From contig OY969586.1 in NCBI GenBank assembly GCA_963701305.1, positions 1,074,690 to 1,138,689 of the forward strand: a stretch of DNA of 64,000 nucleotides, given 5' to 3'. Under the pieces are notes generated by a model. That model made no database searches and was not told the DNA's origin. It saw only the letters and a program-made list of their open reading frames with translations. How positions within the stretch are numbered: the first letter of the stretch is position 1; every line of letters starts with the position of its first letter. Positions 3,050-50,939 of the stretch are shown here, in pieces. The DNA comes from Candidatus Aminicenantes bacterium (GTDB lineage Bacteria; Acidobacteriota; Aminicenantia; Aminicenantales; CAVYOD01). A program made the translations under genes and the position numbers.

Positions 3050-5773
3050 TTACTTCGAGCCAAGGTCGGGGATGGGAACTTGCTCTGCGGCGCAGGTTGC
3101 CGACAACTCTTGCAGCGACCAAGGCTCGTCCTCAGGATAGATCGCCGAGTACGGCTGCTGAAGAAGCTCGACCGCCTCGCTGGTCTGCGCGTCGCACCAG
3201 CCGGGAATCTCCTTTTTGATTTCATTCAGCGAAACGCCGCTCAGTTTGAGGGTGATCAAGGTTTTCACGCTTTCGGTGTTGATCAGGATCGTTTTCATTC
3301 CTCCCTCAAGGATCTTCTTTTTGGCCCGGGCGATCTTCCCGTCCCCGATTTCGTCGAGGAGATGCATGTATTTCTCAAACAAAATCCATTCGTTGATAAG
3401 CACAGCTATTTCCGAAGGAGAAAACGAGGTCCAGAACCGGACGGGTTGCCTCAAACAGATGAACCGGCCGAGCATGAAGGTCCCCGCGGAATAGCCGTAT
3501 TTCTTTGTCTGGACGCATCTGCGGAGGGCATCCTTGAAAAACCTGATCTTTCTGTCCGGGGTCAAGAGGTTAAACACGGCGTGCTGTTTCAGATGGTCAC
3601 CCATCTCGCTTCGGAGAACATCCTTGACGTAGATGGTTCGATGGCCGTCGAACCATTTGTTGACAAGTTCTTTGGCCTTTTCCGTTTCCCCCCTGAATTC
3701 CAGGATCGCCAGCCGAATAATCTCCCGAAGGCTGGAGATCTGCTCCAGCTTCAGGCTGGCAATGAGTTCGTTGTAGGCCCGGTAAGCGCGGGCCATGGAG
3801 GCGAAGGCCGGTTTTTCCGCTTCATCCAGTTCAACGGCCTCGCCCTTCATATAGCGAAGCAGCCGGGCCGACTTGAACTTGGCCTTACCGAGATAGAGCG
3901 CCCTTCTGTAGGACGAGACGGTCACCCAATCGCCTTCTCGGATGACCAGGCCGTCCGGATTCACGAGCCTACGGCCGGCCGACCAGGTGATTCCTTTTTT
4001 TTCAAGGTTGATCAGGCCCGGCAGACCATAACTCTGACAGATGGTCACGACATGGATAGCCGCCGATGTCAAGCTGAGGATCGCGTCCATCTCGCGCATG
4101 ACCGCGGTGTCGCTCGGCTCGAATGCCTTTTTGCAGAGGCAGACCTTGTGTCCCATCTTTTTTTGGGCCAGGGCGGCCTCGGGAGTGAAGAAGACCTGGG
4201 CGGTCACGGCTGTCCGGGGAAGGAGCGAGACTCCCGAGCTGAAATGGACCAGCTCCTTGAATGACTCTGGATCGATCGTGTCCGACTCGATCTGTTTGAT
4301 TTGATAGGGCTTGATCAGTTCGGGAACCCTGCGCTGCGGGATGATCCCGCGTTTGTGAAGCTCCATCACGGCGATGAACGCCCCCCGACCGGTCATTTCC
4401 GAACGGTTCAGCTGGAGCAGGGCAAAAAACTCCTGCCGATCCGTAAAATCGGTCGCAAATTCAATGGTCACGGGAGACTGAAAATGTCGTTCCAGCCCGG
4501 TGAGCGCCGCGCTGAAATGATAAACCGCCGGGAAATCCGCTTTGATCTCGGCCCGCTCGGTGAAGTTCGTTTTCTCAGTTTCCACGGTGCCCGCCATGAT
4601 CTCTTCGCCAAAAATGTTCGTGGCGTGTTCGATCTGCTTGCATTCGCCCGTCCGGGGATGCCGGCTATAGAGAACCCCCACCTGAGAATTCTTGTTTCGG
4701 ACCGTGCAGATCATGTTCTGAAGGATCAGAGAGGGAAAGTGGGTCTCGCCCTTAGAAAAGGTGGTCAATAAATCCAGGTTGCTTTCGAAATACTTGTAGG
4801 CCTGCCTGACAAAAAAATCCGTCTGGTAATAGGGGTCCTGGAGGAGGTCCGGATCTTTCTTTTTGACCCGATCGAAAAGCTGGCCGAGCAGGGAGTTCAG
4901 GTTCTCGGGGGGCGCCTTGGGGCGCAAAAAGAGGGAGGCAAAGCCGCTCTGGTCCACGGCCCGGAGCATGTTCTTGAGGTTGTTCAGAAAGATCCGGGAG
5001 GCGGCCTCCTGGCCATAATAGAGGACGAGGGCAGGGAAGGCATTCTCCGTGACGCCGGCGTTGAGGTAGGTGGGCATGATGCCGGGCATGTAGCTGGGCA
5101 TGGCGCAGCGGATGGCGAATATCATAGGGTAAGTGGCCGAGCCAAGTGTTTGGGCGGTCAGCCTCTCCAAGTCATGCACTGCGGTTTCAATCTTCTTCTG
5201 ACGCTCCGGCGGCTTCTTCCGATAAACGTTGGCCGTCAAGATGACAAAATCCGGCACCGGATAACCTTGCTGGCTCAGACTCAAGAGAGTCGCACCCTTG
5301 TCCCCGGTGATTTTCTTAGAGTAGCGATCGGGACTCGTGCAGGGGACTACGCAATCATCACCCTGCCGAGGGACATTGCGGAAGAAATACCGCCACTCTT
5401 GATAATAATCGTTGATCAACCGGCGCATCTTCTGTTGAGACGGAGCGGAGCGATTCCGGGCGGAGAAAATGAGGCGGCAGTAGTCGAGCGCCTTTTTGAA
5501 GTCTTTCTGGCAAAGAAAGGGTAGGTCGAGCTCTCTGATCTCTGTCTCGCCGAGAAATCTCCCTCCTCTGCCGTAAAGCTCGAGAACCGGGGGAGAAAAG
5601 CCGGTCGGGCGCCGAGCCCGTTCATTCAAGAGACGCTCTTTCATGCTGCTCAGAATGGCCCGCTGGTTGGGGTAATTCCCGCTGACGAAGAACCTCTCGA
5701 TGGATCGAAGATCTTTGACAATCATCCCCTGTGCCACGGAAGATTCAGTATCATAGGAGATTGGGAAAGTCAA
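3050..5773 (-). CDS. PEP-synthase / pyruvate-phosphate-dikinase family protein (PPDK_N ATP-grasp-like nucleotide-binding domain plus PEP-utilising mobile domain), 907 aa.
   Basis: The motif GDKGATLLSLSQQGYPVPDFVIL resembles the PPDK N-terminal GGKGANL...GLPVPPGF motif. A central TSAAIHVV...GLPGLINL...EGDWVTVSS segment resembles the phosphohistidine swivel domain (GGRTSHAAI...GIPAVVG...DGDRVTVDG), but the His is displaced. The N-terminal ~150 aa and C-terminal ~270 aa are unrecognised. Confidence 0.6.
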   Translation of the reverse strand: MTFPISYDTESSVAQGMIVKDLRSIERFFVSGNYPNQRAILSSMKERLLNERARRPTGFSPPVLELYGRGGRFLGETEIRELDLPFLCQKDFKKALDYCRLIFSARNRSAPSQQKMRRLINDYYQEWRYFFRNVPRQGDDCVVPCTSPDRYSKKITGDKGATLLSLSQQGYPVPDFVILTANVYRKKPPERQKKIETAVHDLERLTAQTLGSATYPMIFAIRCAMPSYMPGIMPTYLNAGVTENAFPALVLYYGQEAASRIFLNNLKNMLRAVDQSGFASLFLRPKAPPENLNSLLGQLFDRVKKKDPDLLQDPYYQTDFFVRQAYKYFESNLDLLTTFSKGETHFPSLILQNMICTVRNKNSQVGVLYSRHPRTGECKQIEHATNIFGEEIMAGTVETEKTNFTERAEIKADFPAVYHFSAALTGLERHFQSPVTIEFATDFTDRQEFFALLQLNRSEMTGRGAFIAVMELHKRGIIPQRRVPELIKPYQIKQIESDTIDPESFKELVHFSSGVSLLPRTAVTAQVFFTPEAALAQKKMGHKVCLCKKAFEPSDTAVMREMDAILSLTSAAIHVVTICQSYGLPGLINLEKKGITWSAGRRLVNPDGLVIREGDWVTVSSYRRALYLGKAKFKSARLLRYMKGEAVELDEAEKPAFASMARAYRAYNELIASLKLEQISSLREIIRLAILEFRGETEKAKELVNKWFDGHRTIYVKDVLRSEMGDHLKQHAVFNLLTPDRKIRFFKDALRRCVQTKKYGYSAGTFMLGRFICLRQPVRFWTSFSPSEIAVLINEWILFEKYMHLLDEIGDGKIARAKKKILEGGMKTILINTESVKTLITLKLSGVSLNEIKKEIPGWCDAQTSEAVELLQQPYSAIYPEDEPWSLQELSATCAAEQVPIPDLGSK

Positions 5774-5909
5774 AAGACGTCTCTCTCGTCGTCGCGTCTA
5801 TCTCGCAGTCGCGTCGGGCTCATTACTCCTGCCCTTTCATCCTCACTTCCATTCTGCATTTACAAAAGCAGATCAAAAACATAAAATACAGCTCCTGGGA
5901 AAATTAGAG

Positions 5910-6650
5910 ATGAAAGCGAGACCCGATTCGAATCAGATTTGCGTACTGGATAAAATTCCCCTCAGGCTGGACGCCGACCAAGCCGTGATGGCGCTTCACT
6001 GGAACAGCAAGAGGGACCCAGAATCGGAGCTGCGAAAACTCCTCGATCAGGCGAAAATGCTGATTCAGGCAAAAGCCGTCTACCGTGTTTCTGCTGTTGG
6101 TTCGGTTTCGGGAGATGAGGTCGCCGTCGGGGGCGTAACATTTTCCAGTCGTGTTTTGAGGATCAACCTGGCGAGAGTCAAATCGGCATTTCCTTATATC
6201 ATTACGATCGGGAAATCCCTGGAAACTGAGGCTCAGTCATCTGGGGACCTTCTCAAACAATATTATCTTGAAACCCTGGGCGACTTGGCTCTCCATCTGG
6301 CAGAGGAATATCTCGCCAAAACGATAAAAAAAGAGTACCGGCTCAAGCATCTTTTCAGCATGAATCCCGGCTCGCTGAAAAACTGGCCTCTAAGCCAGCA
6401 AAGACCGCTTTTCGCCCTCTTTGGAAATATAGAAGGACTTCTCGGGGTTAGGCTCTCGGACCAGATGCTCATGATCCCAAGGAAATCGATCTCAGGCATC
6501 TTTATCCCGTCGCCTGCAAAATTCTCGAGTTGCAAGCTCTGTCGCAGGAAAAACTGCCAGGGGAGAAAAGCCCCTTATGACGCCCGTCTGAGACAAACTT
6601 ACCAGCTCGAAGAGGAGTTCGATTCGCCCGGCGAAAGCTGCGAATTCTAG
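5910..6650 (+). CDS. Stand-alone protein resembling the methionine synthase (MetH) B12 reactivation/AdoMet-binding domain.
   Basis: FSMNPGSLKNWPLSQQRPLFALFGNIEGLLGVRLSDQMLMIPRKSISGIFI matches the conserved core of Met_synt_B12 activation domains (FSPGYGDWPL..Q..LF.LL...IGV.LTESCMM.P.KSVS). There is also a C-terminal CKLCRRKNC cluster. Confidence 0.55.
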   Translation: MKARPDSNQICVLDKIPLRLDADQAVMALHWNSKRDPESELRKLLDQAKMLIQAKAVYRVSAVGSVSGDEVAVGGVTFSSRVLRINLARVKSAFPYIITIGKSLETEAQSSGDLLKQYYLETLGDLALHLAEEYLAKTIKKEYRLKHLFSMNPGSLKNWPLSQQRPLFALFGNIEGLLGVRLSDQMLMIPRKSISGIFIPSPAKFSSCKLCRRKNCQGRKAPYDARLRQTYQLEEEFDSPGESCEF

Positions 6651-6692
6651 CGCGGACGGCGCGTCGGAAATTCCGCTTTCAGTCTCCCATAT

Positions 6693-7184
6693 TCAGCTGA
6701 GGAAGCCCGCTTCTCCGATCTGGTAGCTCTCCACGTCTTGCCCATAATAAAGGCTTGGAATGTAGGGAATCGATCCGGTCCACCAAAAGCGCTTGGGATC
6801 GATTTCAATCGTCTGGATCCGCTTCTCCCGTTTCAGCCGGGCCAGAAAGGAAACAATATCCAGATGATCGGTATCCCGGAAGCAGGTCAAGAAGGGGCTC
6901 AAAGGCGCAACCGTCTTTATGAGGTCTTGATTTCGCTCGGGCAAAATCATGATAATCTGGGTCTCACGGAGGAATTTCTGGAGTGAGACGATGCTCATAA
7001 CCTCCTCTTCGTCTGCCGTCAGAAAAACGGCGATGTCCGGGGACGAGAAATTCCCCAGATAGCTGGCCAAGCCCGAGACGGTTCTCATGATCCTAAGCTT
7101 TTCGTCGGGAACAGTCTGCTTGATCAGTTCCTGGATTCGATATCCCTCATCCCGAGTTTTAGCCGAAAAAAAGAACAAGCTCAT
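6693..7184 (-). CDS. Hypothetical protein with a degenerate receiver-like (pseudo-REC) fold. Paralog of 8705..9112.
   Basis: Clear paralogy to the 8705..9112 product (DIAVFLTADEEEVMSIVSLQKFLRETQIIMILPERNQD versus LSVAILFAPTKEELLALVPLRESFRETKVLLILQDQD). The layout is CheY-like but the phospho-acceptor Asp and the Lys are missing. The ribosome-binding site is GGAGGG. Confidence 0.45.
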   Translation of the reverse strand: MSLFFFSAKTRDEGYRIQELIKQTVPDEKLRIMRTVSGLASYLGNFSSPDIAVFLTADEEEVMSIVSLQKFLRETQIIMILPERNQDLIKTVAPLSPFLTCFRDTDHLDIVSFLARLKREKRIQTIEIDPKRFWWTGSIPYIPSLYYGQDVESYQIGEAGFLS

Positions 7185-7243
7185 TGTTTCCCTCCGTCTG
7201 ATGCGTTTTTCTCATTTTTTTTCCGTGACTCTTTTCCCCTGAT

Positions 7244-7258
7244 TCAAGAAATGTGCCA
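7244..7258 (-). promoter_or_regulatory. Sigma54-type promoter (-24 TGGCAC / -12 TTGA, N5 spacing) upstream of 6693..7184.
   Basis: The minus-strand sequence reads TTGGCACATTTCTTGAATC. The same TGGCAC-N5-TTGA architecture recurs upstream of the paralog at 9158..9172. An NtrC-family activator is encoded nearby. Confidence 0.45.
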
Positions 7259-7466
7259 AACTCATAAGACGAATTCTCCCCCCGATTCAAGGGGAATATT
7301 TGAAATCCCGGGTCGGGTTGATCCAGTCTGAGTATCGCGATACAGAACAAATCTTCCTTCGCAGGACTCTAAGATAATATTCTGTATGTCGCTGTTTTCG
7401 GCCGGAATCGCGGAAAATGGACATATGATTTTATTTGGGCCGGCGGGGGCGAAAAGGAGGTCTCCT

Positions 7467-7497
7467 CTGGCCCCTCGCGGTCACCGCGGGGGGCCAG
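7467..7497. other. GC-rich hairpin (13-bp stem, 4-nt loop) in the 690-bp divergent intergenic region between the pseudo-REC gene and the superoxide reductase gene.
   Basis: CTGGCCCCTCGCGG-TCAC-CGCGGGGGGCCAG, seen directly. It is flanked by AAAGGAGG and AAGGAGATGG. Confidence 0.4.
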
Positions 7498-7873
7498 AAG
7501 GAGATGGCGAAGAGTTTATTTAAAAGGAGGAATTGAGAGTCTTGGATTCTTTGATCCACCTTCTTTTTAACAACCTCACTCGCCCATAATACAAAAAACA
7601 TGCCAAAGTCAGGACAACTACAGTTTTACTCTATAAGGGGAAAGGACCGGCTCTGCATCTAAGTTCGACACGCGAGGGCTCACTTTATTCTGCAAAACAG
7701 GAAAATTTCCTGCCAGGTGGGAATCTTCCCTCTATTTATATAAACTTGGATTCTCGAGTTCTGGACTTCAAGGGTATGGGAAACGGAGGGGGCTTGGCCA
7801 GATTCTGGTATGTATCTTGCAGGCAAAATTGAATTGAAGGACGTTTTATGCTCAATAAAAAGGAGGTTCCTTA

Positions 7874-8269
7874 ATGGCCGGCTTCAAGGACTTATTTCAG
7901 TCAGCGGATTGGAAGCAGGAAAAACACATCCCAGTCATTGACGCGCCGAAGAAGGTCAAGAAGGGGGAATTCTTCCAGGTCAAAGTGACCATCGGGAAAG
8001 AAATCGCCCATCCCAATAAGACCGAGCATCACATCAGTTGGATCGACGTTTACTTCCATCCGGAGGGAGAAAAATTCCCCCACCAAATCGGAAAAGCCGA
8101 ATTCATGGCCCACGGCGCTTCGACCCAAGGCCCCGATACCAGTACGGTCTATACCCACCACGAAGTCATTTTTAGCTTTAAAACCGACAGGCCAGGCGCT
8201 ATCTTCGCTTCAAGCCTCTGCAACATCCATGGGCTCTGGCAAAATTCTCAACCCCTAGAAGTCGATTGA
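7874..8269 (+). CDS. Superoxide reductase (neelaredoxin / desulfoferrodoxin-family ferrous-iron centre II domain).
   Basis: Contains EKHIPVI (EKHVPVI box), HPNKTEHHISWI (iron-ligand His) and CNIHGLW (Cys ligand, CNLHGLW consensus). Strong RBS AAAGGAGG 7 nt upstream. Confidence 0.8.
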   Translation: MAGFKDLFQSADWKQEKHIPVIDAPKKVKKGEFFQVKVTIGKEIAHPNKTEHHISWIDVYFHPEGEKFPHQIGKAEFMAHGASTQGPDTSTVYTHHEVIFSFKTDRPGAIFASSLCNIHGLWQNSQPLEVD

Positions 8270-8344
8270 GGAGCGGAGAAAGAATTGAGCAGGGACCTGC
8301 TGCGGCCGGAAAAGCGCTCTCTTAGATCAAATTGAAAAAATATC

Positions 8345-8686
8345 TTAGGAGAGAGGTTCTCTAAATTCTTCGGAGACGCTTGGACGTCCCAATCTCTTTT
8401 CCAGTATTCGTCTCGGATACTCGCCCGAGTGGCCGAAATAAAGCCAGCTGTCTCCCGCAAAATTTTCCTGGAGCCCGAGCAGGTCATCGAGAGCGATGAC
8501 CAGGTCGGCCATGTCTCTTTTCCTAATCCATCTTTTTTCCCTGAGGCGGACGATCCAGTCCAGAACCTCGGAGGAAGTATTGCAGGAGGTCAGAGGGATC
8601 GTATACAGGCAATCCCCTCCGCCGTTGCAAAATCGGAGCGACAAATTCTCCGCATCCGCCAACCACCTGCCCCATGTTTTTTTCAT
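8345..8686 (-). CDS. Hypothetical protein, 113 aa. It sits 19 bp downstream of the pseudo-REC paralog and is probably co-transcribed with it.
   Basis: ORF only. No family recognised. Confidence 0.4.
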   Translation of the reverse strand: MKKTWGRWLADAENLSLRFCNGGGDCLYTIPLTSCNTSSEVLDWIVRLREKRWIRKRDMADLVIALDDLLGLQENFAGDSWLYFGHSGEYPRRILEKRLGRPSVSEEFREPLS

Positions 8687-8704
8687 CGGCCCCTCCTTTG
8701 GGAT

Positions 8705-9112
8705 TCAGGCACCCATTCCCTCGAGCCCCGATCTATTTTGATGCGAATCCAACAGGTTTTGTAGCACCGAAAGGGTTCGGCTGTAATTATTCTCCGTGTA
8801 GGAAAGATAGGTTGGAAATAGCCTGTGAGCCAGAGAAATCGTCTCCCTATCCTGGTCCTGAAGGATGAGTAAGACCTTCGTCTCCCGGAAAGACTCACGC
8901 AGAGGGACGAGGGCCAAGAGCTCTTCCTTTGTCGGCGCAAAGAGAATTGCGACTGACAATGTGTTTTTGGGTTTCAAGAGCCTCTCAGACAAGCTCTGGT
9001 ACGTTCGGAAGATTTCCAACCCCGCCTTGGGTGCCGCCTGCCGAACGTCCCGGATGAGATGGGTTCCTTCGGCGCTCGTGCTGGCCGCATAAACAAATAC
9101 ATTCATATCCAT
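8705..9112 (-). CDS. Hypothetical pseudo-receiver-like protein. Paralog of 6693..7184.
   Basis: See the paralog entry. RBS is GGGGAG. Confidence 0.45.
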   Translation of the reverse strand: MDMNVFVYAASTSAEGTHLIRDVRQAAPKAGLEIFRTYQSLSERLLKPKNTLSVAILFAPTKEELLALVPLRESFRETKVLLILQDQDRETISLAHRLFPTYLSYTENNYSRTLSVLQNLLDSHQNRSGLEGMGA

Positions 9113-9157
9113 ACTCCCCTCTAGATCTTCTCATTCATTCTCCCAAGCTAAATGCAA

Positions 9158-9172
9158 TCAAGAAACGTGCCA
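9158..9172 (-). promoter_or_regulatory. Sigma54-type promoter (TGGCAC-N5-TTGA) upstream of 8705..9112.
   Basis: The minus-strand sequence reads TTGGCACGTTTCTTGATTGCA. It is the second copy of the motif found at 7244..7258. Confidence 0.45.
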
Positions 9173-9539
9173 AATCTCCTAGATTTCGGCGTTCTTCAGA
9201 CAAATTGCTCAACAGCCTAGAGGGGCCTTGAAAATCGGCGGCACCGATTCCGCTCCTTGGAGGCACAGAGTTGACTGAATAATTGAGTCCTTCAGTTTTT
9301 GTCCTGCGGGAGTAGACTGACTCCGCAAAAGAGGACAAGCTAATCCGTACACATTACCTCGTGCCTCGTGCCCCGTTCTCAAAGTATTTAAATAAGAAAA
9401 TACCTTAGCTTCTAAGCTGGCATGGCAGAGCGTCGGCCTTAGAGAACCAATTAAACTCCCGGCCTGCGGTTCGTTCCCGGTTAAGTATTTTATTTATAAA
9501 AAAGAATCAGAGTTGGCTTCCAGCGCATGTTCCAGGTGT

Positions 9540-10949
9540 TCAGCGGGAGGACGGTATCCTGTATCTTTTCAGCAGAGTGTACAGGCGGGACCTCGATAGA
9601 CCTGAGATCCTGCAGGCCTCTTTTATGTCGCCGCCGGTGCTCTTCATGAGGCTTCTCAGGTAATCTTGCTCGATCTTGGCTAAGCCCGTTTCCCGCACAT
9701 CCGCCAGGCTCTGGAGCCCGCCGGCCGAATCCGCCGCCGCACCCGATTCCTGGCTCGGCGTCTCCTTCTGACTGAATGATGACCGGGCCATGTGGATGCG
9801 GATGTGCTGAGGAAGGTGCTGGGGAAAGAGCGCCGGTCCGTCCAGGGCAACCACGACCGCCTTTTCCAGGGCCTGAATCAATTCCCGGACATTCCCAGGC
9901 CAACTATATTCCATAAGGATATCGAAAAATTCGGGGGAAAAACCTTTCATCGGCAGGCCGTACTGCTGGCATAGCTTATCAAGATAATGGAGGACGAGCT
10001 CCTTGATGTCTTCGCGGCAGGCTCGTAGTGGCGGCAAATCGATCGTCAGTGTTCGCAGCCTGTAGAGGAGGTCCTCGCGGAAGCTGTTTTTCTTGATCAT
10101 GGCCTCGAGGTCCCGATTCGTCGCGGCGATAAGGCGGAAATCGCTTTGGACCTCCTGCCCGCCACCCACCGGACGGAACATCCGCTCCTGGAGCACACGC
10201 AAAAAGGCTTTCTGAATCGATGGAGAGAGCTCTCCGATCTCGTCCAGAAACAGCGTTCCGCCATCGGCCTGCTTGATCAGTCCATCTCTGGGTTTATCCG
10301 CTCCGGTGAATGCTCCTCGGACGTGCCCGAACAGGGTGCTTTCGACAAGGGTCTCGGGGAGAGCGGCGCAATCGACCACGACAAAATTACTTTTGCTCCG
10401 GTTGCTGTTCCTGTGAATCGCCCAGGCAAAAAGCTCTTTACCGGTCCCTGTCTCGCCGGTCAGGAGGACATTGGCCTCGCTGCCGGCAGCCTGGGCGAGG
10501 CCGTCCAGGCAGGTTCGGAGCGGAGGGCTGTTGCCGATGATGCCCTCACGATGCAACGCGAAAGGCGGGCTAGCCGACTGCTTCTTTTCCCGATACTGGA
10601 TCGCTCGTTCGACAACGAGTGCGATTTCCTTCGTGGAAACGGGCTTTTCGAGGTAATCCCAGGCCCCCTGCTTGATGGCCAGTTCCGCGCCGTCGGGGTC
10701 TCCGAAACCGGTCATGATGACGACTTCGGGCGCACTAGGACTTCTTCTGATCTCAGGCAGTAGGTCCAGCCCCGAACCGTCAGGGAGCCTGACGTCGCAG
10801 AGGACAAGATCAAAAGAACCGGACATGATTTTTTGGCGGGCCTCGTTCACGCTGCCGGCCGTTTCGATTTTGTGCCCAAGGCTTTGAATGACCCTGCCCA
10901 GGGAATCTAGGACCAGGCGATCGTCATCGATGACGAGAAGACTTGCCAT
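9540..10949 (-). CDS. Sigma54-dependent response regulator (NtrC family: REC + AAA+ sigma54-activation + Fis-type HTH).
   Basis: Receiver motifs ([21 protein letters not shown]). AAA+ region ([15 protein letters not shown] and a GAFTGA loop variant in HVRGAFTGA). C-terminal HTH ([19 protein letters not shown]). The start was chosen at the internal ATG ([10 protein letters not shown]); the ORF track extends to 10994. Confidence 0.85.
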
Positions 10950-11192
10950 TTCTCTTTGTTTTAGCCAGTGTTCACGGCCCTTCCGAAAGCCCACGACTTT
11001 ATATCACGAGAAGAAACGCCTGTCAAACTGACGCCCTTCAGGAGTTGAGAGGAGCGAGGTGCAAACAGCATGAGGATCCTAGCTGGACTCCTCCCCCTAA
11101 CCCCTTATTCCTTACTTTTGGGAGTTTGCGCTTTTATTTGAATCACGGCCTGATGTATTCTAATGGGAGGGACCTAAGAAAGACGAGCCAGA

Positions 11193-12563
11193 ATGAAAAC
11201 CTACGATGTCGTGGTTGTCGGATCGGGTTCGGGCGAGATTATTGTGGAGGAGGCCCTGGCTCACGGCCTGAAAGTAGCGCTGATCGACCGGGGGGCCCTC
11301 GGCGGAACCTGCCTGAATGTCGGCTGCATCCCTTCCAAGTTGCTCATCGTACCAGCGGACAGGATCGTCGACATCCAGGACTCCCGAAAGCTTGGGGTCC
11401 GGGCCGAAATCGAGAGGGTTGATTTCACGAGCATCATGGAGCGGACAAGGCGGTCGGTCCGATCATCCGAACATCTGATCAGCCAAAGGATCCGGAAAAT
11501 CAAAAACCTCGAATTCTACGGACAGAGGGCGAGGTTTGTGAACAAATCCACCTTCCGGGTTGGTGGCCAGGATATCAGCGGAGGAAATATCTTTCTCGCC
11601 TCGGGGGCGCGGCCCTCTATTCCTCCCGTCAAAGGGCTGAGAAAAATTCCCTACCTGACCAACGAAACGGTCTTTGCTCTGAACAGGAAACCCCGGAGCC
11701 TCATCATCATCGGCGGCGGCTACATCGCGGCCGAATTTGCCCATTTCTTCGCTGCCGTGGGGACCGCCGTCACGGTCCTCCAGAGGGACCACCGTTTGGT
11801 CAAAGAAGAAGAGCCGGAGATCTCCGCGCTTTTGAAGAAAAAACTGGGAGAGAGGATGAAGGTTCGCACGGGAATGGAAGCCGTTGAAGCCAGGACAGAG
11901 GGAAAGTTCGTCGTGATCTCCGCCCGCGATAGGGACTCCGGCCGGAAGCAAGTATTCAAGGCCGAAGAGGTGCTCGTCGCCGCCGGTCGAAAGTCCAATG
12001 CCGATCTGTTGGATGTCGAGAAGGCGGGCATCGAAACCGACGGGAAAAACTACATCAGGGTGAACGAATATCTGGAAACGAGCCAAAAAAACATCTGGGC
12101 CTACGGAGACGCCATCGGACAAAAGATGTTCCGGCACGCCGCCAACTATGAAGCCGAGCTAGCTTTTCACAACGCTATTCACGGCGGAAAAAACAAAATG
12201 GACTTCCTCCTCGTCCCTCATGCCGTTTTCACATCGCCCCAGATTGCCTCGGTCGGGATGACCGAAGCGGAGGCCCGGTTAAAGCACAAAATCCTAGTGG
12301 GAAAGGCCATGTATTCGACGACCGCCATGGGCGAAAGCCTGATGGACACGGACAGTTTTGCCAAGGCTATCGTGGAGAAAGAGACCCTGAAGATCCTGGG
12401 TTTTCACCTGATCGGCCCCCAAGCTTCCCTGCTCATCCAGGAGGTCGTCGATGCCATGTCCTCCGACGGCACCATCCTGCCCATCATCAGGGGGATCCAC
12501 ATCCATCCAGCGCTCGCGGAGATCGTCGTCCGGGCTCTTATCAATCTCAAAGAAAAAGATTAA
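11193..12563 (+). CDS. Class I pyridine-nucleotide disulfide oxidoreductase, dihydrolipoyl dehydrogenase-like.
   Basis: FAD fold (VVVVGSGSG), redox-active disulfide box (GGTCLNVGCIPSKLL) and C-terminal HIHPALAE (HxHPT..E) dimer-interface motif. Confidence 0.8.
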   Translation: MKTYDVVVVGSGSGEIIVEEALAHGLKVALIDRGALGGTCLNVGCIPSKLLIVPADRIVDIQDSRKLGVRAEIERVDFTSIMERTRRSVRSSEHLISQRIRKIKNLEFYGQRARFVNKSTFRVGGQDISGGNIFLASGARPSIPPVKGLRKIPYLTNETVFALNRKPRSLIIIGGGYIAAEFAHFFAAVGTAVTVLQRDHRLVKEEEPEISALLKKKLGERMKVRTGMEAVEARTEGKFVVISARDRDSGRKQVFKAEEVLVAAGRKSNADLLDVEKAGIETDGKNYIRVNEYLETSQKNIWAYGDAIGQKMFRHAANYEAELAFHNAIHGGKNKMDFLLVPHAVFTSPQIASVGMTEAEARLKHKILVGKAMYSTTAMGESLMDTDSFAKAIVEKETLKILGFHLIGPQASLLIQEVVDAMSSDGTILPIIRGIHIHPALAEIVVRALINLKEKD

Positions 12564-45771: not shown

Positions 45772-46602
45772 ATGATCGGCTGGACATCCTCTCAAAAGCA
45801 GCGCCTAAGAGAATTGAATGCCGACCCCGGCCTGCAGGAGAAAAACTTTTTGAGCTCTCGGGAACGAGACAAGGCCTTCCCTCTAGCCGAACGGCCACTC
45901 TGCCAAAGGAGCCTTCGGAAGCTACAGAAAATAAGGGAGAGCCGCAAACGGCCCAAGATCTGCAGATTGGAATCCAGGCTCATCCGCGCTCTCGTACGGG
46001 AAGGGTTCGTTCAGGTGACAACACCCATTCTGATCTCCCGGGGATCTCTGGAAAAAATGTCTATCGGAGAAAGCCACGAGCTGGCCAAGCAGGTCTTCTG
46101 GGTCGACGAGAACCGCTGCCTGCGGCCTATGCTGGCCCCTAACCTCTATTTTCTCCTGCGAGAGCTTGTCAAAGTCTGGGAGAAACCCGTTCGAATCTTC
46201 GAGGTGGGACCTTGTTTTCGCCGGGACAGCGCGGGGAAACACCACCTCAATGAATTCACGATGCTGAATCTGGTTGAACTCGGCCTCCCGGAAAAAACCA
46301 AGACGGAGAGGTTCGAGGAGCTGGCCGCTCTGGTCATGAAGACCGCCGGGATTCAGAATCATAAGTTTACCAGGCACCAGAGCGAGGTCTACGGCGAGAC
46401 AATCGACATCGATTCTACGATCGAGCTTGCTTCGGGGGTGATCGGCCCGAATCCGTTGGATTCCCGGTGGGAGGTCGTTGACAACTGGGTGGGCATCGGA
46501 GTCGGACTGGAGAGGCTGATCATGGTCAGCGAAAAGTATCAGAATATTCAGCGGGCTGGCCGGGCGCTTGTTTATCTGGACGGGATTCGGCTCAACATCT
46601 GA
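45772..46602 (+). CDS. pylS: Pyrrolysyl-tRNA synthetase catalytic (C-terminal) domain protein, PylSc.
   Basis: Near-collinear match to the PylS class II core: CLRPMLAPNLY, PVRIFEVGPCFRRDSAGKHHLNEFTMLN, VYGETIDI, ELASGVIGPNPLD, W.GIGVGLERL and the C-terminal GIRLNI (archaeal GISTNL). Confidence 0.88.
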   Translation: MIGWTSSQKQRLRELNADPGLQEKNFLSSRERDKAFPLAERPLCQRSLRKLQKIRESRKRPKICRLESRLIRALVREGFVQVTTPILISRGSLEKMSIGESHELAKQVFWVDENRCLRPMLAPNLYFLLRELVKVWEKPVRIFEVGPCFRRDSAGKHHLNEFTMLNLVELGLPEKTKTERFEELAALVMKTAGIQNHKFTRHQSEVYGETIDIDSTIELASGVIGPNPLDSRWEVVDNWVGIGVGLERLIMVSEKYQNIQRAGRALVYLDGIRLNI

Positions 46603-46639
46603 AAAGGACAAGGCCGCCCATTCATCAAGGAGGTTGCCA

Positions 46640-47287
46640 ATGGCTAAAGAAGAGATTCTCAAGGAAGCCGCAGAATCCATCATCAATCATGATAAGGCCA
46701 AGGCCGAAGAGGTTGCCAACCGCGCTTTGGCCCAGGGGCTGGACCCGCTCGAAGTCATAACGAGGGGATTCCGGGAGGGCATCATCCAGGTCGGAGATCT
46801 CTTCGGGCGAGGTGAAATCTTCATGCCGGAGCTCCTGGACGCCGCTGAGGCGATGAAAACTGCCAACACCATTCTCACGGCCGCACTGCCCGAAGGGGCG
46901 CAGCAAAAAAAGGGAAAAGTGGTTGTCGGGACGGTTCAGGGCGACATCCATGACATCGGAAAACTCCTGGTTGTTTCTCTTCTCCAGGTCAACGGATTTG
47001 ACGTTTTTGACCTCGGGCATGACGTCGAAATCGGGAAATTTATCGAAAAAGCCCTGGAAGTCGATGCCGATATCATCGGCACCAGCGCTCTCTTGACGAC
47101 GACCATGACCGGCCAAAAGACGCTCGAAGAGGAGCTGAGAAAGGGGGGCCTCAAGCCCCGCTTCAAGACGATGGTCGGAGGAGCCCCGGTGACACAGCGC
47201 TGGGCAGACCGGATCGGAGCCGATGCTTATGGAGAGGACGCGTCCGAGGCAGTCAAAAAGGCCCTCGAATTGATGGAGAAAAAGTAG
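46640..47287 (+). CDS. Methylamine-type corrinoid protein (MtbC/MtmC/MttC-like B12-binding protein).
   Basis: N-terminal helical cap, then a B12-binding Rossmann domain with the D-x-H-x-x-G box (GDIHDIGK) and a C-terminal ...ADAYGEDASEAVKKAL. Strong RBS AAGGAGG. The ORF track starts at 46568. Confidence 0.8.
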   Translation: MAKEEILKEAAESIINHDKAKAEEVANRALAQGLDPLEVITRGFREGIIQVGDLFGRGEIFMPELLDAAEAMKTANTILTAALPEGAQQKKGKVVVGTVQGDIHDIGKLLVVSLLQVNGFDVFDLGHDVEIGKFIEKALEVDADIIGTSALLTTTMTGQKTLEEELRKGGLKPRFKTMVGGAPVTQRWADRIGADAYGEDASEAVKKALELMEKK

Positions 47288-47299
47288 CTCCATAATCTC

Positions 47300-48415
47300 A
47301 TGCTTGATCAGCCCGTGTTCTCTTTAAAATTAGAAGACGTTCTGGGGAAGGCCCTGAGCCTGAGGGGCCTGACGGGTCCGGAAATCGTTTTCCTGCTGGG
47401 TCTCAAAGCAGAAGACGAGATCTGCCTCCTCTTTCAAACAGCCCAAGAGTTGAGGGAACGCTTTTTTGGCCCCAAGGTCTTCGCCTACGGATTCGTCTAC
47501 TTTTCGACCTATTGCCGCAACAATTGTCGGTTCTGTTCTTCGCGCATCTCCAATAAACAAAAATCACGATACCGGAAGACCGAATTCGAGATCAGGGAAG
47601 CGGCCTCGGGCCTGGCTGAATCGGGGGTCCACCTGATCGACCTGACCATGGGGGAAGATCCTCGTTATTACGGCCGCAGAGAAGAGTTCGAGGGCCTGGC
47701 CGAATTGGCCGCTGTCGTGAAACGCGAAACGGGCTTGCCGCTGATGATCTCTCCGGGCGCGGTCTCCGGGAAGACGCTCGGAGATTTCGCCCAAGCCGGA
47801 GTGGATTGGTACGCTTGCTACCAAGAAACGCACAACCGTCGGCTTTTCGATGAGTTGCGCCCCGGCCAGAGTTATGAGCGCCGCATGCTGAAGAAATACC
47901 GGGCCAGAGATTTGGGGATGCTGATCGAGGAGGGGATCATGGCCGGAGTCGGCGAGACCAGCCTGGATATCGCAGATTCCATCTCGGCCATGCGCGGGAT
48001 GGGCGCCCATCAGACCCGGGTCATGAGTTTCATCCCCCAGGACGGAACGCCCATGGTCGATAGACACTCTCCTCTGCGCCTCCGCGAACTTCTCATCATC
48101 GCCGTTCTTCGTCTTGCCTTTCCGGACCGGTTGATACCGGCCTCTCTGGATATCGACGGCCTGGCCTACCTGAAAGAGAGGCTCGAAGCCGGAGCCAATG
48201 TCGTCACTTCACTCATCCCACCGTCGATGGGGTTGTCCGGTGTTTCCCAGGCCAGTCTGGACATCAACGAAGGAAACAGAACGATCCAGGGAATTATCCC
48301 GGTCCTGGACGAGACCGGATTGGAGCTGGCCGACGCGGAGGACTACGGGAATTGGGTCGGAGAGGAAAGAAGGAAGCTTCGACGACAAAATCTCAACTGC
48401 GAGGCCGAGATTTGA
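47300..48415 (+). CDS. pylB: PylB, radical-SAM 3-methylornithine synthase (lysine mutase).
   Basis: CxxxCxxC radical-SAM box (YCRNNCRFC). BioB-like length of 371 aa. Position between pylS and pylC. Confidence 0.85.
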   Translation: MLDQPVFSLKLEDVLGKALSLRGLTGPEIVFLLGLKAEDEICLLFQTAQELRERFFGPKVFAYGFVYFSTYCRNNCRFCSSRISNKQKSRYRKTEFEIREAASGLAESGVHLIDLTMGEDPRYYGRREEFEGLAELAAVVKRETGLPLMISPGAVSGKTLGDFAQAGVDWYACYQETHNRRLFDELRPGQSYERRMLKKYRARDLGMLIEEGIMAGVGETSLDIADSISAMRGMGAHQTRVMSFIPQDGTPMVDRHSPLRLRELLIIAVLRLAFPDRLIPASLDIDGLAYLKERLEAGANVVTSLIPPSMGLSGVSQASLDINEGNRTIQGIIPVLDETGLELADAEDYGNWVGEERRKLRRQNLNCEAEI

Positions 48416-49578
48416 AAATCGCTGTGGTCGGGGGAAAGCTGCAGGGCACCGAGGCGACCTATCTTTCACACAAAGCGGGCTGGGAGGTCGTCCTGATCGA
48501 CAGGAGACCTACCGTGCCGGCGATGGGATTGGCCGACGAATTCCATCAAATCGACGTCGTCGACCAGGCCTCGAAGCTGCCTTCGATCCTGAAGAAAGCC
48601 GACCTTGTCATCCCGGCCGTCGAAGACGCGCTGGCGCTGCTGTCTTTAAGACTGGTGACCGAGCAAGAAAACATCCCCCTTGCCTATGACGAAGCCTCGT
48701 ATCGCGTGTCCTCATCGAAGATAAAATCCGACCGACTCTTCAAAGACCTCGACCTCGCCGCCCCTCGAGTCTGGCCTCGTTGCGACCCACCCTTTCTGGT
48801 CAAGCCATCCAGCGCGAGCGGAAGCCACGGCGTCCGCAAGATCAAAAACAGAGAGGACCTCGCTCCTTTTATTGCCGCAAGAGATACGCAGGGGGAGAGT
48901 TGGGTCGTCCAGGAATTCCTGGAGGGCCCTTCCTATTCTCTCGAAGTCTTGGGCTGTCGAAGAAAATTCGTCGACCTTCAGACGACGACAATCGAGGTGG
49001 ACACCCTCTATGATTGCAAGAGAGTCCTGGCACCGGCGGATCTTCCGCCGGTGTTGAAGGCCAATTTCGGCGACCTCGCCCGGAAGATCGCCGCCGATCT
49101 GGATCTTCGGGGGATCATGGACATCGAAGTCATCCTCCACCAGGGTCAGCTCAAGATCCTGGAGATCGATGCCCGCCTGCCGAGCCAGACCCCGACCGCA
49201 GTATATTGCTCAACGGGCATCAACATGATCGAGCTCCTCGTCGATATTTTTGCGCGGGGCTCGCTTCCCGATTCTCTCACCATCGATCAAGAAAAAGCGG
49301 TGATCTACGAGCACATCAAGGTCACGCCAGAGACGATCGAGGTCGCCGGCGAACACATCATGGCCGGGGCCGAACCTCTCAGAGTCCGGAAGGGCTTTTT
49401 TGGCGCGGACGAGGCCATCACAGATTTCAAACCGGGAAAAGCTGAGTGGGTGGCCACCTTGATCTTTGTCGGAAAAAGCCCTCAGAAGGTTCAGGCGCGG
49501 AGGGAAGCGACGATTAACGAACTCAAAAAATACTTTGGCTTAAACGTCTATAGGGACACGGTCCCCGGGAAAGATTGA
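48412..49578 (+). CDS. pylC: PylC, ATP-grasp 3-methylornithine--lysine ligase.
   Basis: The N-terminus KIAVVGGKLQGTEATYLSHKAGWEVVLIDRRP matches archaeal PylC (MKTICLIGGKLQGFEAAYLSKKAGMKVVLVDKNP). ATP-grasp core present. Probable TTG start overlapping the pylB stop (TTGA). The ORF track begins at 48352, inside pylB. Confidence 0.85.
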   Translation: MKIAVVGGKLQGTEATYLSHKAGWEVVLIDRRPTVPAMGLADEFHQIDVVDQASKLPSILKKADLVIPAVEDALALLSLRLVTEQENIPLAYDEASYRVSSSKIKSDRLFKDLDLAAPRVWPRCDPPFLVKPSSASGSHGVRKIKNREDLAPFIAARDTQGESWVVQEFLEGPSYSLEVLGCRRKFVDLQTTTIEVDTLYDCKRVLAPADLPPVLKANFGDLARKIAADLDLRGIMDIEVILHQGQLKILEIDARLPSQTPTAVYCSTGINMIELLVDIFARGSLPDSLTIDQEKAVIYEHIKVTPETIEVAGEHIMAGAEPLRVRKGFFGADEAITDFKPGKAEWVATLIFVGKSPQKVQARREATINELKKYFGLNVYRDTVPGKD

Positions 49579-49619
49579 TGCGTTCCTTCAATGATCTTAA
49601 ACGCCGGGTTGGGTAGGAA

Positions 49620-50492
49620 ATGACGCGCCTGACGACGGAATTTGTCCGTTCCATTCCAGACGATCTCCGTCTCTATGACCAGGGATTGCTCGAGAAGACC
49701 GGCCACAGCCTCCGACAGATTGCCTGCCGGGCCTCCCGAATCGAAGAATCGGAGATGGGCATGCTTCTTGGCTCAACACTCGTCGGGATCGTACCGGTGA
49801 CCTCGGGAGAAGGTAAGATCGAGGGCTTCTGTCAGGCTGTTCAGGGCATTACGAACCACCTCGGCGCCCCTTCGTTCGTGACGCGTCATCCGGACGTGGC
49901 CGGCTTGGCCGAAGCCGTCGAACGAAGAGCCGAGGTCATCTTCCTCGCCGATGATGGCAGATTCATCGCCCTGAACATGGTGTCCAGGACGGCCGTCGAC
50001 AATTCCGAAGCCACCGCCCGGGGATATCTCGCGGCCCTCGATTTCCTTGCGAAGGGGCTGAGGGGGAGGCCCGTCCTGGTCATAGGCGCAGGCCGGGTTG
50101 GGGGAGAAGCGCTTTCCGTCCTTCAAGAGTACGGAGCACGGCCGGGAGTCTATGATCCCGACGACAGGAAAACCCGGCCCCTCGAATCGGGAAGCATGAT
50201 CATCATCGAAAGAGATCTGGAGAAGGCTCTGGAAAAATATTCTCTCCTTCTCGAAGCCTCTCCGGCCTCAGCGATCATTCAGGAGAGACACATAAAGCCT
50301 GATACTATGATTGCCGCTTGCGGCATCCCGCTGGGGTTGAGCCCCGCGGCCGCGGTCCTCGTCCGGGAGCGTTTGATCCATGATCCCTTGCAGATCGGTG
50401 TGGCCGCCATGTTGACGATGGCGCTCACGAGGCGGAGGAATAAAGTGTGGGGGGTAGATCGGAAAGATCCCATAGACCCTAAATCTATGTAG
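49620..50492 (+). CDS. pylD: PylD, pyrrolysine synthase (NAD-dependent dehydrogenase).
   Basis: GIVPVTSGEGKIEGFCQAVQGITNHLGAPSFVTRHPDVAGLAEAVERRAEVIFLADDGRFIALNM is collinear with archaeal PylD (VGIVPVTSGNGIIGNFSASL...DMPDVSGYYEAVQNGAEIILMADDRTFLAHN). Rossmann GAGRVGG. A C-terminal ~20-aa extension reads into the pylT gene. Confidence 0.85.
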   Translation: MTRLTTEFVRSIPDDLRLYDQGLLEKTGHSLRQIACRASRIEESEMGMLLGSTLVGIVPVTSGEGKIEGFCQAVQGITNHLGAPSFVTRHPDVAGLAEAVERRAEVIFLADDGRFIALNMVSRTAVDNSEATARGYLAALDFLAKGLRGRPVLVIGAGRVGGEALSVLQEYGARPGVYDPDDRKTRPLESGSMIIIERDLEKALEKYSLLLEASPASAIIQERHIKPDTMIAACGIPLGLSPAAAVLVRERLIHDPLQIGVAAMLTMALTRRRNKVWGVDRKDPIDPKSM

Positions 50493-50521
50493 CCGGGTGA
50501 AACTCCCGGACTCCCCGCCAC
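50450..50521 (+). tRNA. pylT: tRNA-Pyl (pylT), anticodon CUA, with the CCA end encoded.
   Basis: Manual fold: acceptor GGGGGGT/ACTCCCC (7 bp, one G-U); one nt (A); D-stem GATC/GATC with a 5-nt loop GGAAA; one nt (C); 6-bp anticodon stem CATAGA/TCTATG; loop CCCTAAA (anticodon CTA at 50480..50482); 3-nt variable loop TAG; T-stem CCGGG/CCCGG with loop TGAAACT; discriminator G; then CCA. These are the hallmark tRNA-Pyl features (6-bp anticodon stem, short D-loop, 3-nt variable loop, single nt between acceptor and D stems). Confidence 0.78.
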
Positions 50522-50578
50522 AACGATATAGATAGCGCAGTCGGCGAAACCAAAGGTTTCGCGACCGAGGCCGAGACG

Positions 50579-50908
50579 ATGACCGAGAAGATCAAGGAAA
50601 AATACTATCGAAAGCAGACCGACTTCTTTTTGCTGCTCGACAAGATCAAGCTTTGGCCGTCCCGAAAAGGTCTTCTTCACGGTGTCAAAGTCCTCGAGAT
50701 CAAAGGATCTCTGGCTGAGGTCACCACTCATTGCGACCGGACGTTCCGAGTTCGCTACTCACGGCACAGCCGGGCCGCCCGGTGGCTGCGCAACAAATGG
50801 CACAAGGGCCCCTGCCGGGAGTGCCAGATTCCCGACTGGAAACTCGAAAAATACGAGAAGACATATTTTGACCAACATCGAGGGTCAACCCTGAGAGGCA
50901 AGGACTGA
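50579..50908 (+). CDS. pylSn: PylSn, stand-alone N-terminal tRNA-Pyl-binding domain of the split pyrrolysyl-tRNA synthetase.
   Basis: LWPSRKGLLHGVKVLEIKGSLAEVTTHCDRTFRVRYSRHSRAARWLRNKWHKGPCRECQIP aligns with the archaeal PylS N-terminus ([61 protein letters not shown]), including the zinc-ligand Cys/His positions. Confidence 0.82.
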   Translation: MTEKIKEKYYRKQTDFFLLLDKIKLWPSRKGLLHGVKVLEIKGSLAEVTTHCDRTFRVRYSRHSRAARWLRNKWHKGPCRECQIPDWKLEKYEKTYFDQHRGSTLRGKD

Positions 50909-50939
50909 TGAATCCAGAAAAAAAGGAGGTGAAAAAGAC

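Follow-up and report, generated by a model that had tools for sequence, protein, structure and literature searches.

Genes and predicted sigma-54 promoters of the locus

The window analysed here is a stretch of 64,000 nt taken from contig OY969586.1 of a Candidatus Aminicenantes bacterium with a genome of ~4.07 Mb. Between positions 6693 and 10949, it contains a gene for an NtrC-type sigma-54 activator, two genes for small receiver-fold proteins (paralog 1 and paralog 2), a superoxide reductase (SOR) gene, a candidate small RNA and four predicted sigma-54 promoters. We read this arrangement as a compact sigma-54 regulon cassette in which the paralogs would feed back on the activator by protein binding, a reading to which we assign a probability of roughly 45%. 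Based on the sequence features described below, the regulon architecture is well supported, as is the control of at least the paralog 2 promoter (P2) by the activator, which very probably also drives the promoters of the SOR gene (P_SOR), the candidate small RNA (P_sRNA) and paralog 1 (P1). A preliminary description of this DNA, made from its letters alone, had reported the paralogs, their promoters, the SOR gene and the activator, and all of these lie where it had placed them; P_SOR, P_sRNA with the conserved non-coding element behind it, and a 113-aa gene were absent from it.

The activator gene (9540..10949, minus strand) encodes a 469-aa enhancer-binding protein (EBP). Its earlier assignment as a sigma-54-dependent response regulator agrees with the Pfam domains of the protein, which are Response_reg (8.9e-25), Sigma54_activat (1e-65), AAA_lid_14 and HTH_8, a Fis-type helix-turn-helix. 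The GAFTGA loop is intact at residues 213-218 of 469 (window ~10301-10316, minus strand), and the translation shows a complete receiver active site (D9/D10, D52, T80 and K102). By its sequence, the protein thus belongs to the response-regulator class of the NtrC-family EBPs. No kinase gene was found within the conserved cluster (~3-13.3 kb of the window). A hybrid PAS histidine kinase of 718 aa, encoded at 61811-63967 on the minus strand, is a possible partner of this orphan activator; it is the only kinase among the annotated open reading frames (ORFs), most of the ~55 ORFs of the window being outside that scan. An RpoN-box motif was not found in the 64-kb window, which is one part of the ~4.07 Mb genome.

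Paralog 1 (6693..7184, 163 aa) and paralog 2 (8705..9112, 135 aa) are both encoded on the minus strand, were recognized as ORFs and by their paralogy, and lack a phospho-acceptor site. Their kinship, which had been claimed from inspection, was recovered by BLASTP (25% identity over 118 residues, E 4e-14). The orthologs of paralog 2 begin at its Met3 and are 133 aa long. A further 133-aa gene in the neighbourhood, considered as a third paralog, was discarded since it encodes an unrelated secreted protein. Paralog 2 is followed, after a gap of 19 nt, by the 113-aa gene (8345..8686, minus strand), the second of its operon. The 113-aa product is 78% identical and occupies the same position in L066, a locus where paralog 2 is only 66% identical; as judged from this conservation, the ORF is a real gene of the paralog 2 operon. 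It is absent from three closer relatives (L001, L002 and L067), and the Pfam and PADLOC scans of its product gave no match.

The SOR gene (7874..8269, plus strand, 131 aa) lies between the two paralogs, as had been noted, and its product matches the Pfam Desulfoferrodoxin family (Desulfoferrodox, 5.1e-33, profile positions 2-97 of 98) without an N-terminal desulforedoxin domain. Residues H18, H45, H51, C116 and H119 are spaced like the iron ligands of the Pyrococcus enzyme. With a PF01880 domain, four His and one Cys, the protein falls into the 1Fe (neelaredoxin) class of SOR.

The two paralog promoters, P2 (TGGCACGTTTCTTGA, 9158..9172), which would also serve the 113-aa gene, and P1 (TGGCACATTTCTTGA, 7244..7258), are exact motif matches on the minus strand, located 46 and 60 nt upstream of the respective ATGs, each with a T directly before it. 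The sequence TTGGCAC(A/G)TTTCTTGA reported to precede each paralog on the minus strand is therefore present at both genes. The preliminary description had allowed that the underlying motif, TGGCAC-N5-TTGA, might occur at random frequency, and this is not the case: the 64 kb contain two exact matches, P1 and P2, against 0.07 expected, and none of 100 shuffles reached two or more. Two further promoters are sigma-54-like, P_SOR (TGGTATGTATCTTGCA, 7806..7821, plus strand), 52 nt upstream of the SOR start codon, and P_sRNA (TTGGCATGTTTTTTGT, 7591..7606, minus strand), which precedes the candidate small RNA. The -24 element is TGGCAC at P1 and P2, TGGCAT at P_sRNA and TGGTAT at P_SOR; the -12 element is TTGA at P1 and P2, TTGC at P_SOR and TTGT at P_sRNA; the spacing is exact in all four, so that each site has the predicted -24/-12 organization of a sigma-54 promoter.

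At the score threshold used, weak sigma-54-like matches occur at ~0.25 per kb, and of the 29 matches in the window, these four alone lie between genes, in the right orientation and together within 2 kb. The four promoters are also conserved in related loci. P2 is identical in L001, L002 and L003, P1 in L001, L002 and L065, and P_SOR in L001 and L002; P_sRNA is conserved in L001, L067 and L065, and in L002 it reads TGGCAC, nearer to the consensus.

The region behind P_sRNA (7450..7580, minus strand) was recognized by its conservation and folding. Identity across four related loci amounts to 85-90%, and within the region 49 nt form a 100% identical core. From its 5' end, the element is made up of a stem-loop, a C/U-rich stretch conserved at every position and, at the 3' end, a GC-rich hairpin of 20 bp (7461-7504) with UUUU behind it. 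The 49-nt C/U-rich core (CUCAAUUCCUCCUUUUAAAUAAACUCUUCGCCAUCUCCUUCUG plus flanking bases) is invariant in five genomes. The folding z-score is -5.26 against shuffles, and the 3' hairpin shows one compensatory pair among five close sequences; its U-tract is short (4 U). The Rfam search of positions 6000-11500 gave no match at E<=1. An overlapping 56-codon ORF was rejected as coding because of its non-synonymous changes and a frameshifting 1-nt indel in L065. On this evidence, the element is a candidate sigma-54-dependent small RNA of ~130 nt. We also considered pairing of this RNA with the SOR ribosome-binding site, where 9 nt of CCUCCUUUU face AAAAGGAGG, and set it aside as too generic.

The receiver-fold family, its activator and its neighbourhoods

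The paralogs belong to a large family that accompanies this activator in many anaerobic bacteria. An exhaustive profile search recovered 2010 cluster representatives at E<=1e-3, of which 959 remained at E<=1e-10; almost all are stand-alone proteins of 120-150 aa. In the longest members, domain scans revealed no fused domain of another kind: one (P0019) is a natural tandem duplication of the family domain, and the excess length of the others goes back to mis-called starts. Neither paralog matched Pfam, NCBIfam or PADLOC, 52 family members showed no family model or fused domain in Pfam and NCBIfam, and a word-indexed protein search with the paralogs returned only close relatives and the label "hypothetical protein".

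The preliminary description had attributed to these proteins a CheY-like layout without the phospho-acceptor Asp, and structure prediction, which it had proposed as a check, agrees with the fold. The AlphaFold2 model of paralog 2, built on a 52-sequence alignment, has a mean confidence score (pLDDT) of 90.3 and five alternating beta-alpha units around a central parallel sheet, as in CheY; the model of paralog 1 has the same five units plus a low-confidence tail. A receiver fold is thus predicted for both paralogs, with confidence for paralog 2. The loss of the acceptor Asp also stands. With the residue register taken from predicted secondary structure and not from superposition, the positions after beta3 (58-61) are F-A-P-T in paralog 2, and the combined D and E fractions at these positions across the 52 members are 0.00, 0.02, 0.08 and 0.21. 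What did not stand is a receiver assignment by sequence, as every sequence model of the receiver failed: Response_reg was not found at E<=0.1 in either paralog or at E<=0.01 in the 52 members, the alignment of the family profile with the activator receiver by hhalign gave a probability of 0.2, and a profile search of PDB sequences retrieved no receiver. The remaining active-site residues are likewise missing, since the acidic pair after beta1 is replaced by variable residues (D and E at most 0.37 in the 52 members), the Thr/Ser after beta4 by P-D, and the Lys after beta5 by A/T-D-S-D, with no conserved Lys. The paralogs therefore fit the pseudo-receiver concept and fall outside its operational definition, in that sequence methods do not call them receivers.

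Conservation in the family is concentrated in beta4-alpha4-beta5 and the start of alpha5, where the conserved residues are L82, L84, P85, D86, T91, H96, L98, P100, Y105 and D107, and the family consensus is ILILPDR..DTI..GH.L.PRF..Y.D.DF..V.AVL.KM. Members of the 163/164-aa subtype share an aromatic-rich tail, EIDPKRFWWTGSIPYIPSLYYGQDVESYQIGEAGFLS, which makes up the C-terminal ~40 residues of paralog 1 (6693-6815) and might serve for docking. In other family members, the C-terminus is a short motif that contains a conserved Trp, e.g., ...KWQN or ...EWLN.

The genomic context of the family was analysed in 56 loci of distant members from genome and metagenome collections, mostly from Desulfobacterota and one from Acidobacteriota, clustered at ~80% protein identity. 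A sigma-54-like -24/-12 element lies within 250 nt upstream of the family gene in 35 of 42 clusters, against a background of 0.07 per equivalent stretch. The earlier reading of the paralog promoters as sigma54-type is sustained in this way: they exceed chance, they are identical in four related genomes and they are typical of the family. An ortholog of the activator, detected by tblastn, lies directly upstream on the same strand with a gap of 220-960 nt in 19 of the 29 clusters with enough sequence; several metagenomic loci are short, and the absence of the activator from them is often uninformative. These adjacent orthologs are 53-60% identical over ~445 residues, and in four more loci the activator lies a few kb upstream or just downstream.

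When the family promoters were aligned at -24, two or three tandem GTCC-N8/9-GGAC inverted repeats with 20-bp phasing became apparent at about -155, -135 and -115. Such tandem sites are present in 22 of 32 loci, against ~0.08 expected per locus, and these repeats are evidently the predicted enhancer sites of the activator orthogroup. To rank the tandem pairs of the window, we used a weight matrix for the half-site that was derived from 35 sites of other loci. The first-ranked pair (9300..9337) consists of TGTCCTGCGGGAGTAGACT and ACTCCGCAAAAGAGGACA, 20 nt apart and 129-165 nt upstream of the -24 element of P2; it scores 22.4, above the highest value reached in 30 simulated windows (21.0), both of its sites match the family-wide type, and L001-L003 have kept it. 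Two observations make the adjacent activator very probably the cognate one: its orthologs lie directly upstream of the family gene in 19 of 29 clusters, and paralog 2 is preceded by the tandem enhancers typical of the family. The cassette would thus combine a cognate activator with upstream enhancer sites.

The other candidate pairs are weaker. Between P_SOR and P_sRNA, ~100-120 nt from each, lie ATTCTGCAAAACAGGAA and TTCCTGCCAGGTGGGAA, 20 nt apart (7687..7724); this pair ranks third with a score of 16.9, about the level of random maxima and not significant alone, is conserved in L001, L002 and L065, and resembles a palindrome, TTCCTGCTCAGCAGGAT, of the distant locus L068. A weak enhancer-like pair (7331..7368) located 73-124 nt from the -24 element of P1 ranks eighth with a score of 9.3, in a region conserved in L001, L002 and L065. 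The second-best pair (1492-1532) was attributed to chance, as it lies inside a coding region without a nearby sigma-54-like promoter.

Two further observations concern these sites. The best single match to the half-site matrix in the window, GGTCCGATCATCCGAACA (11456-11473, score 15.6), lies inside the Pyr_redox gene, ~500 nt upstream of the activator start codon and on the other strand; with its coding location and no sigma-54-like promoter nearby it was treated as chance, the alternative being an autoregulation site. An AT-rich stretch (e.g., AACTAATTGAAATTA) was seen by eye, unscored, between enhancer and promoter, ~45-65 nt upstream of -24, in many distant loci (L005, L020, L022, L032, L039, L043 and L048). 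It looks like a site for integration host factor (IHF), as expected for DNA looping at sigma-54 promoters; by eye, the P2 region of the window has no obvious counterpart.

Among close relatives, L001, L002, L003 and L067 keep a block comprising Pyr_redox, the activator, paralog 2, SOR, paralog 1, a 246-aa gene and a gene resembling pyruvate phosphate dikinase (PPDK). In the window, the last two form a divergent gene pair beside paralog 1 (3050-6650), syntenic in L001 and L002 and partly in L067; the 907-aa protein matches, weakly and only in part, the nucleotide-binding domain of PPDK, and the 246-aa protein, faintly, the activation domain of B12-dependent methionine synthase. The rejected 133-aa gene mentioned above lies beyond the PPDK-like gene. 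A phosphoribosyltransferase (PRTase) gene encoding ~240-250 aa (Pfam Pribosyltran) is located between P_SOR and SOR in L001 (stretch 10790-11563), L002 and L067, and a clean deletion of ~620 bp at window positions 7822-7873 has removed it here.

The association with SOR extends to a distant organism represented by L068-L070, in which the activator is 68%, SOR 84% and paralog 1 47% identical. There, a MEDS-PAS histidine kinase, a PRTase-SOR operon, a 164-aa gene and the activator form one cluster. L068 has divergent sigma-54 promoters, TGGTATGAATCTTGC for PRTase-SOR (also in L070) and TGGCACGTTTTTTGA for the 164-aa ortholog, with the palindrome TTCCTGCTCAGCAGGAT between them. Since the link with SOR is kept in L068, where paralog 1 is only 47% identical, the conservation of this neighbourhood indicates that the SOR link of the 163-aa subtype is real and not accidental. 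L065 has lost SOR, of which a 3'-end remnant is left, and has kept both paralogs and the small-RNA element.

Elsewhere, the window contains a bacterial pyrrolysine cassette (45772-52325), with PylSc (45772-46602), the corrinoid protein MtbC (46568-47287), PylC (48352-49578), PylD (49620-50492), tRNA-Pyl with anticodon CUA (50449-50520) and PylSn (50579-50908). The dimethylamine methyltransferase MtbB is split into two ORFs, 50940-51986 and 51987-52325; the in-frame TAG that connects them (51984-51986) is the expected pyrrolysine codon. PylB was not located in the cassette, of which the stretch 47287-48351 was outside the examined part.

A feedback model and its alternatives

Based on these results, we propose the following model. 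The activator, whose receiver domain is intact, would be turned on through phosphorylation by a histidine kinase. In its active form, it would bind the tandem GTCC-N8/9-GGAC repeats, 20 bp apart and ~100-165 bp upstream of its targets, and together with sigma-54 RNA polymerase it would open up to four promoters within 2 kb, P2, P_SOR, P_sRNA and P1. The paralogs, with a predicted stand-alone receiver fold that would not be phosphorylatable at the canonical site, would, once made, bind the receiver domain of the activator or its kinase. The contact surface would be the most conserved face, beta4-alpha4-beta5, which NtrC-family receivers use to dimerise; the tandem domain fusion P0019 is compatible with dimer formation. 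By analogy with other sigma-54 systems, the feedback is most likely negative, so that SOR and the other targets would be produced in a self-limiting pulse. Four elements of this model are inferences: that the activator controls all four promoters, that the paralogs bind it or the kinase, whether they act negatively or positively, and which signal induces the system. That the paralogs are part of a control device is suggested by their being a near-constant first target and neighbour of one activator orthogroup while the cargo varies.

Several observations weigh against this model. Of the 37 loci with enough upstream sequence, eight lack an activator nearby. Three of the four promoters have another base in place of the -12 C, P1 and P2 having TTGA against the canonical TTGC; family-wide, TTGA (11), TTGC (10) and TTGT (9) are found at similar counts, so that the TTGA of the window is typical. 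The P2 enhancers are the only statistically convincing ones, the pair at P_SOR and P_sRNA being at the level of the best chance pairs and that at P1 weak, and the last three promoters could thus answer to another activator. The sign of the feedback is suggested by the analogy with PspA, GlnK and FleN alone. Finally, the frequent co-transcription of family genes with CheW or chemoreceptor genes could mean a role in chemosensory complexes.

This last point leads to the alternative that fares best, although we consider it unlikely, namely that the paralogs are outputs: adaptors that act as non-phosphorylatable CheY mimics and dock on chemoreceptor-CheW-CheA arrays or on the flagellar switch in most members, and on something redox-related here. 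Of 45 distinct loci, 18 have a CheW gene and four more a chemoreceptor gene immediately downstream, CheR, Hpt and Cache-like genes are also found near some family loci, and the predicted fold is that of CheY itself. However, the window, its relatives and L068 carry no chemotaxis genes at the locus, and other downstream genes encode a Cache-like periplasmic protein, CstA, a genuine receiver, an Hpt domain, HtrA or a binding protein. With partners as different as CstA, HtrA and the binding protein, the activator is the only near-constant neighbour, and an adaptor dedicated to one cargo would not be expected to retain a single conserved surface when the cargos are so diverse. The same neighbourhoods bear on the view of the preliminary description that the paralogs are effectors of an oxidative-stress or redox response, which we could not uphold: the family cargo is mostly CheW, chemoreceptors or CstA, which are not redox proteins, and L065 has lost SOR while keeping the paralogs. 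The constant partner being the activator, a regulatory role is indicated for the paralogs rather than a stress-effector role.

A second alternative, slightly less probable than the adaptors, is that there is no single regulon. The adjacent activator would serve P2 alone, P1, P_SOR and P_sRNA would be served by other sigma-54 activators, and the clustering would reflect the ancestry of duplicated genes. Besides the restriction of significant enhancers to P2, this reading is favoured by the sites near P_SOR and P_sRNA, which have another half-site flavour (TTCCTG...CAGGAA) than those of P2, and by the dozens of activators that genomes of such bacteria often contain (PMC4641369). Nevertheless, L068-L070 hold a single activator, the 164-aa gene and PRTase-SOR in one tight cluster, the palindrome between the divergent promoters there has the TTCCTG...CAGGAT flavour, variants of the type TCCTG...CAGGA are found among the enhancer sites beside activator orthologs in L005, L048 and L051, and the whole block is syntenic in four genomes.

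Improbable in our view is a third alternative, in which the paralogs are co-sensors or co-activators. A relocated pocket formed by D86, H96, D107 and D109 (paralog 2 numbering) would bind a metal or small ligand, or even accept a phosphoryl group. In this loaded state, the paralogs would stimulate the activator, which would amount to positive feedback or to coincidence detection. The conserved polar residues do lie at the C-terminal ends of beta4 and beta5 and in alpha4, near the position of a receiver active site, the 163-aa subtype has a conserved association with an oxygen-defence metalloenzyme, and coincidence detection by receiver heterodimers is known from WhiI/BldM (PMC12632262). Yet the residues differ between the paralogs, paralog 2 having Q85 in place of P85 and paralog 1 an E at the D86 position, and neither a known ligand-binding motif nor a family model match was found. 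The view that the motifs and small ORFs are functionless chance features, for which only the general frequency of weak sigma-54-like matches (~0.25 per kb) speaks, is already refuted by the exact motif statistics, the conservation of genes and promoters, the family of ~2000 representatives and the confidently predicted fold.

Relation to known systems and significance

Pseudo-receivers, or aspartate-less receiver (ALR) domains, have been reviewed (PMC4395418, PMC12632262), with examples such as WhiI-BldM and CmrT of C. difficile, and they are defined as domains that are computationally identified as receivers and lack key catalytic residues (PMC12632262). In the NtrC family, receivers use alpha4-beta5 as their dimerisation surface, and according to a published proposal pseudo-receivers may form heterodimers with receivers (PMC12632262). 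The present family resembles the ALR domains in its predicted receiver fold without an acceptor Asp and in its proposed action by protein contacts, often through the alpha4-beta5-alpha5 face and maybe by pairing with a genuine receiver. It differs in three respects. The published domains were found by receiver sequence models and mostly carry an output domain, whereas the proteins of the window stand alone and escape these models; the family lacks all five active-site residues and not just the Asp; and it is defined by a sigma-54 promoter and an adjacent NtrC-type activator.

Small proteins that are encoded beside a sigma-54 activator, are expressed under its control and bind and limit its pathway are found in PspF-PspA of enterobacteria and in similar pairs, FleQ-FleN, HrpS-HrpV and NtrBC-GlnK. 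The cassette shares with these systems the activator gene, the enhancer, the sigma-54 promoter and a small partner as the first target. There is no kinship in sequence or fold, as PspA is a coiled-coil protein, FleN a MinD-type ATPase and GlnK a PII protein, whereas the partner in the window would mimic the input domain of the activator itself, through an interaction that is predicted here. In Myxococcus xanthus, the chemosensory pathway Che3 signals to CrdA, an NtrC-like sigma-54 activator. Many family loci are similar in that genes for CheW, chemoreceptors and, in some cases, Hpt/CheA or CheR come after the activator and the receiver-like gene; the likeness is one of gene content, and the window locus differs in having no chemosensory genes. 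We know of no receiver-like aspartate-less partner described for Che3.

The candidate small RNA recalls LuxO-Qrr, where small RNAs are reportedly transcribed from sigma-54 promoters beside the activator gene. In both cases, a short structured RNA with a terminator hairpin and a conserved unpaired stretch would be made from a sigma-54 promoter of its own in the gene cluster of the activator; the RNA of the window differs in being predicted from sequence alone, in having no Rfam similarity and in its short U-tract. In the literature searched, we found neither a sigma-54-dependent stand-alone receiver mimic coupled to its activator nor sigma-54 control of SOR, which in both cases is weak evidence of absence.

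A broader proposal, which we put forward as possible and no more than tentative, is that the paralogs represent a widespread and previously unrecognised class of stand-alone receiver mimics. Made from the first sigma-54 target of the activator, they would heterodimerise with its receiver or occupy its kinase and so set the gain or duration of the response. Such an "input-domain decoy" would be present in several hundred to a few thousand loci of Desulfobacterota, Acidobacteriota and their relatives, and here it would have been duplicated and recruited, with a new sigma-54-dependent small RNA, for superoxide defence in an anaerobe.

The mode of action of pseudo-receivers is an open question in two-component signalling, as a 2025 review points out (PMC12632262). 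Most examples are single cases, and the family described here offers a large, uniform and genetically simple test bed, in which the heterodimer or decoy hypothesis is testable with few proteins and one reporter. In addition, ~2000 clusters of "hypothetical proteins" that family databases do not cover gain a context. For the organism itself, the cassette suggests that SOR, usually seen as a housekeeping defence of anaerobes, may be inducible via sigma-54, possibly with an RNA arm.

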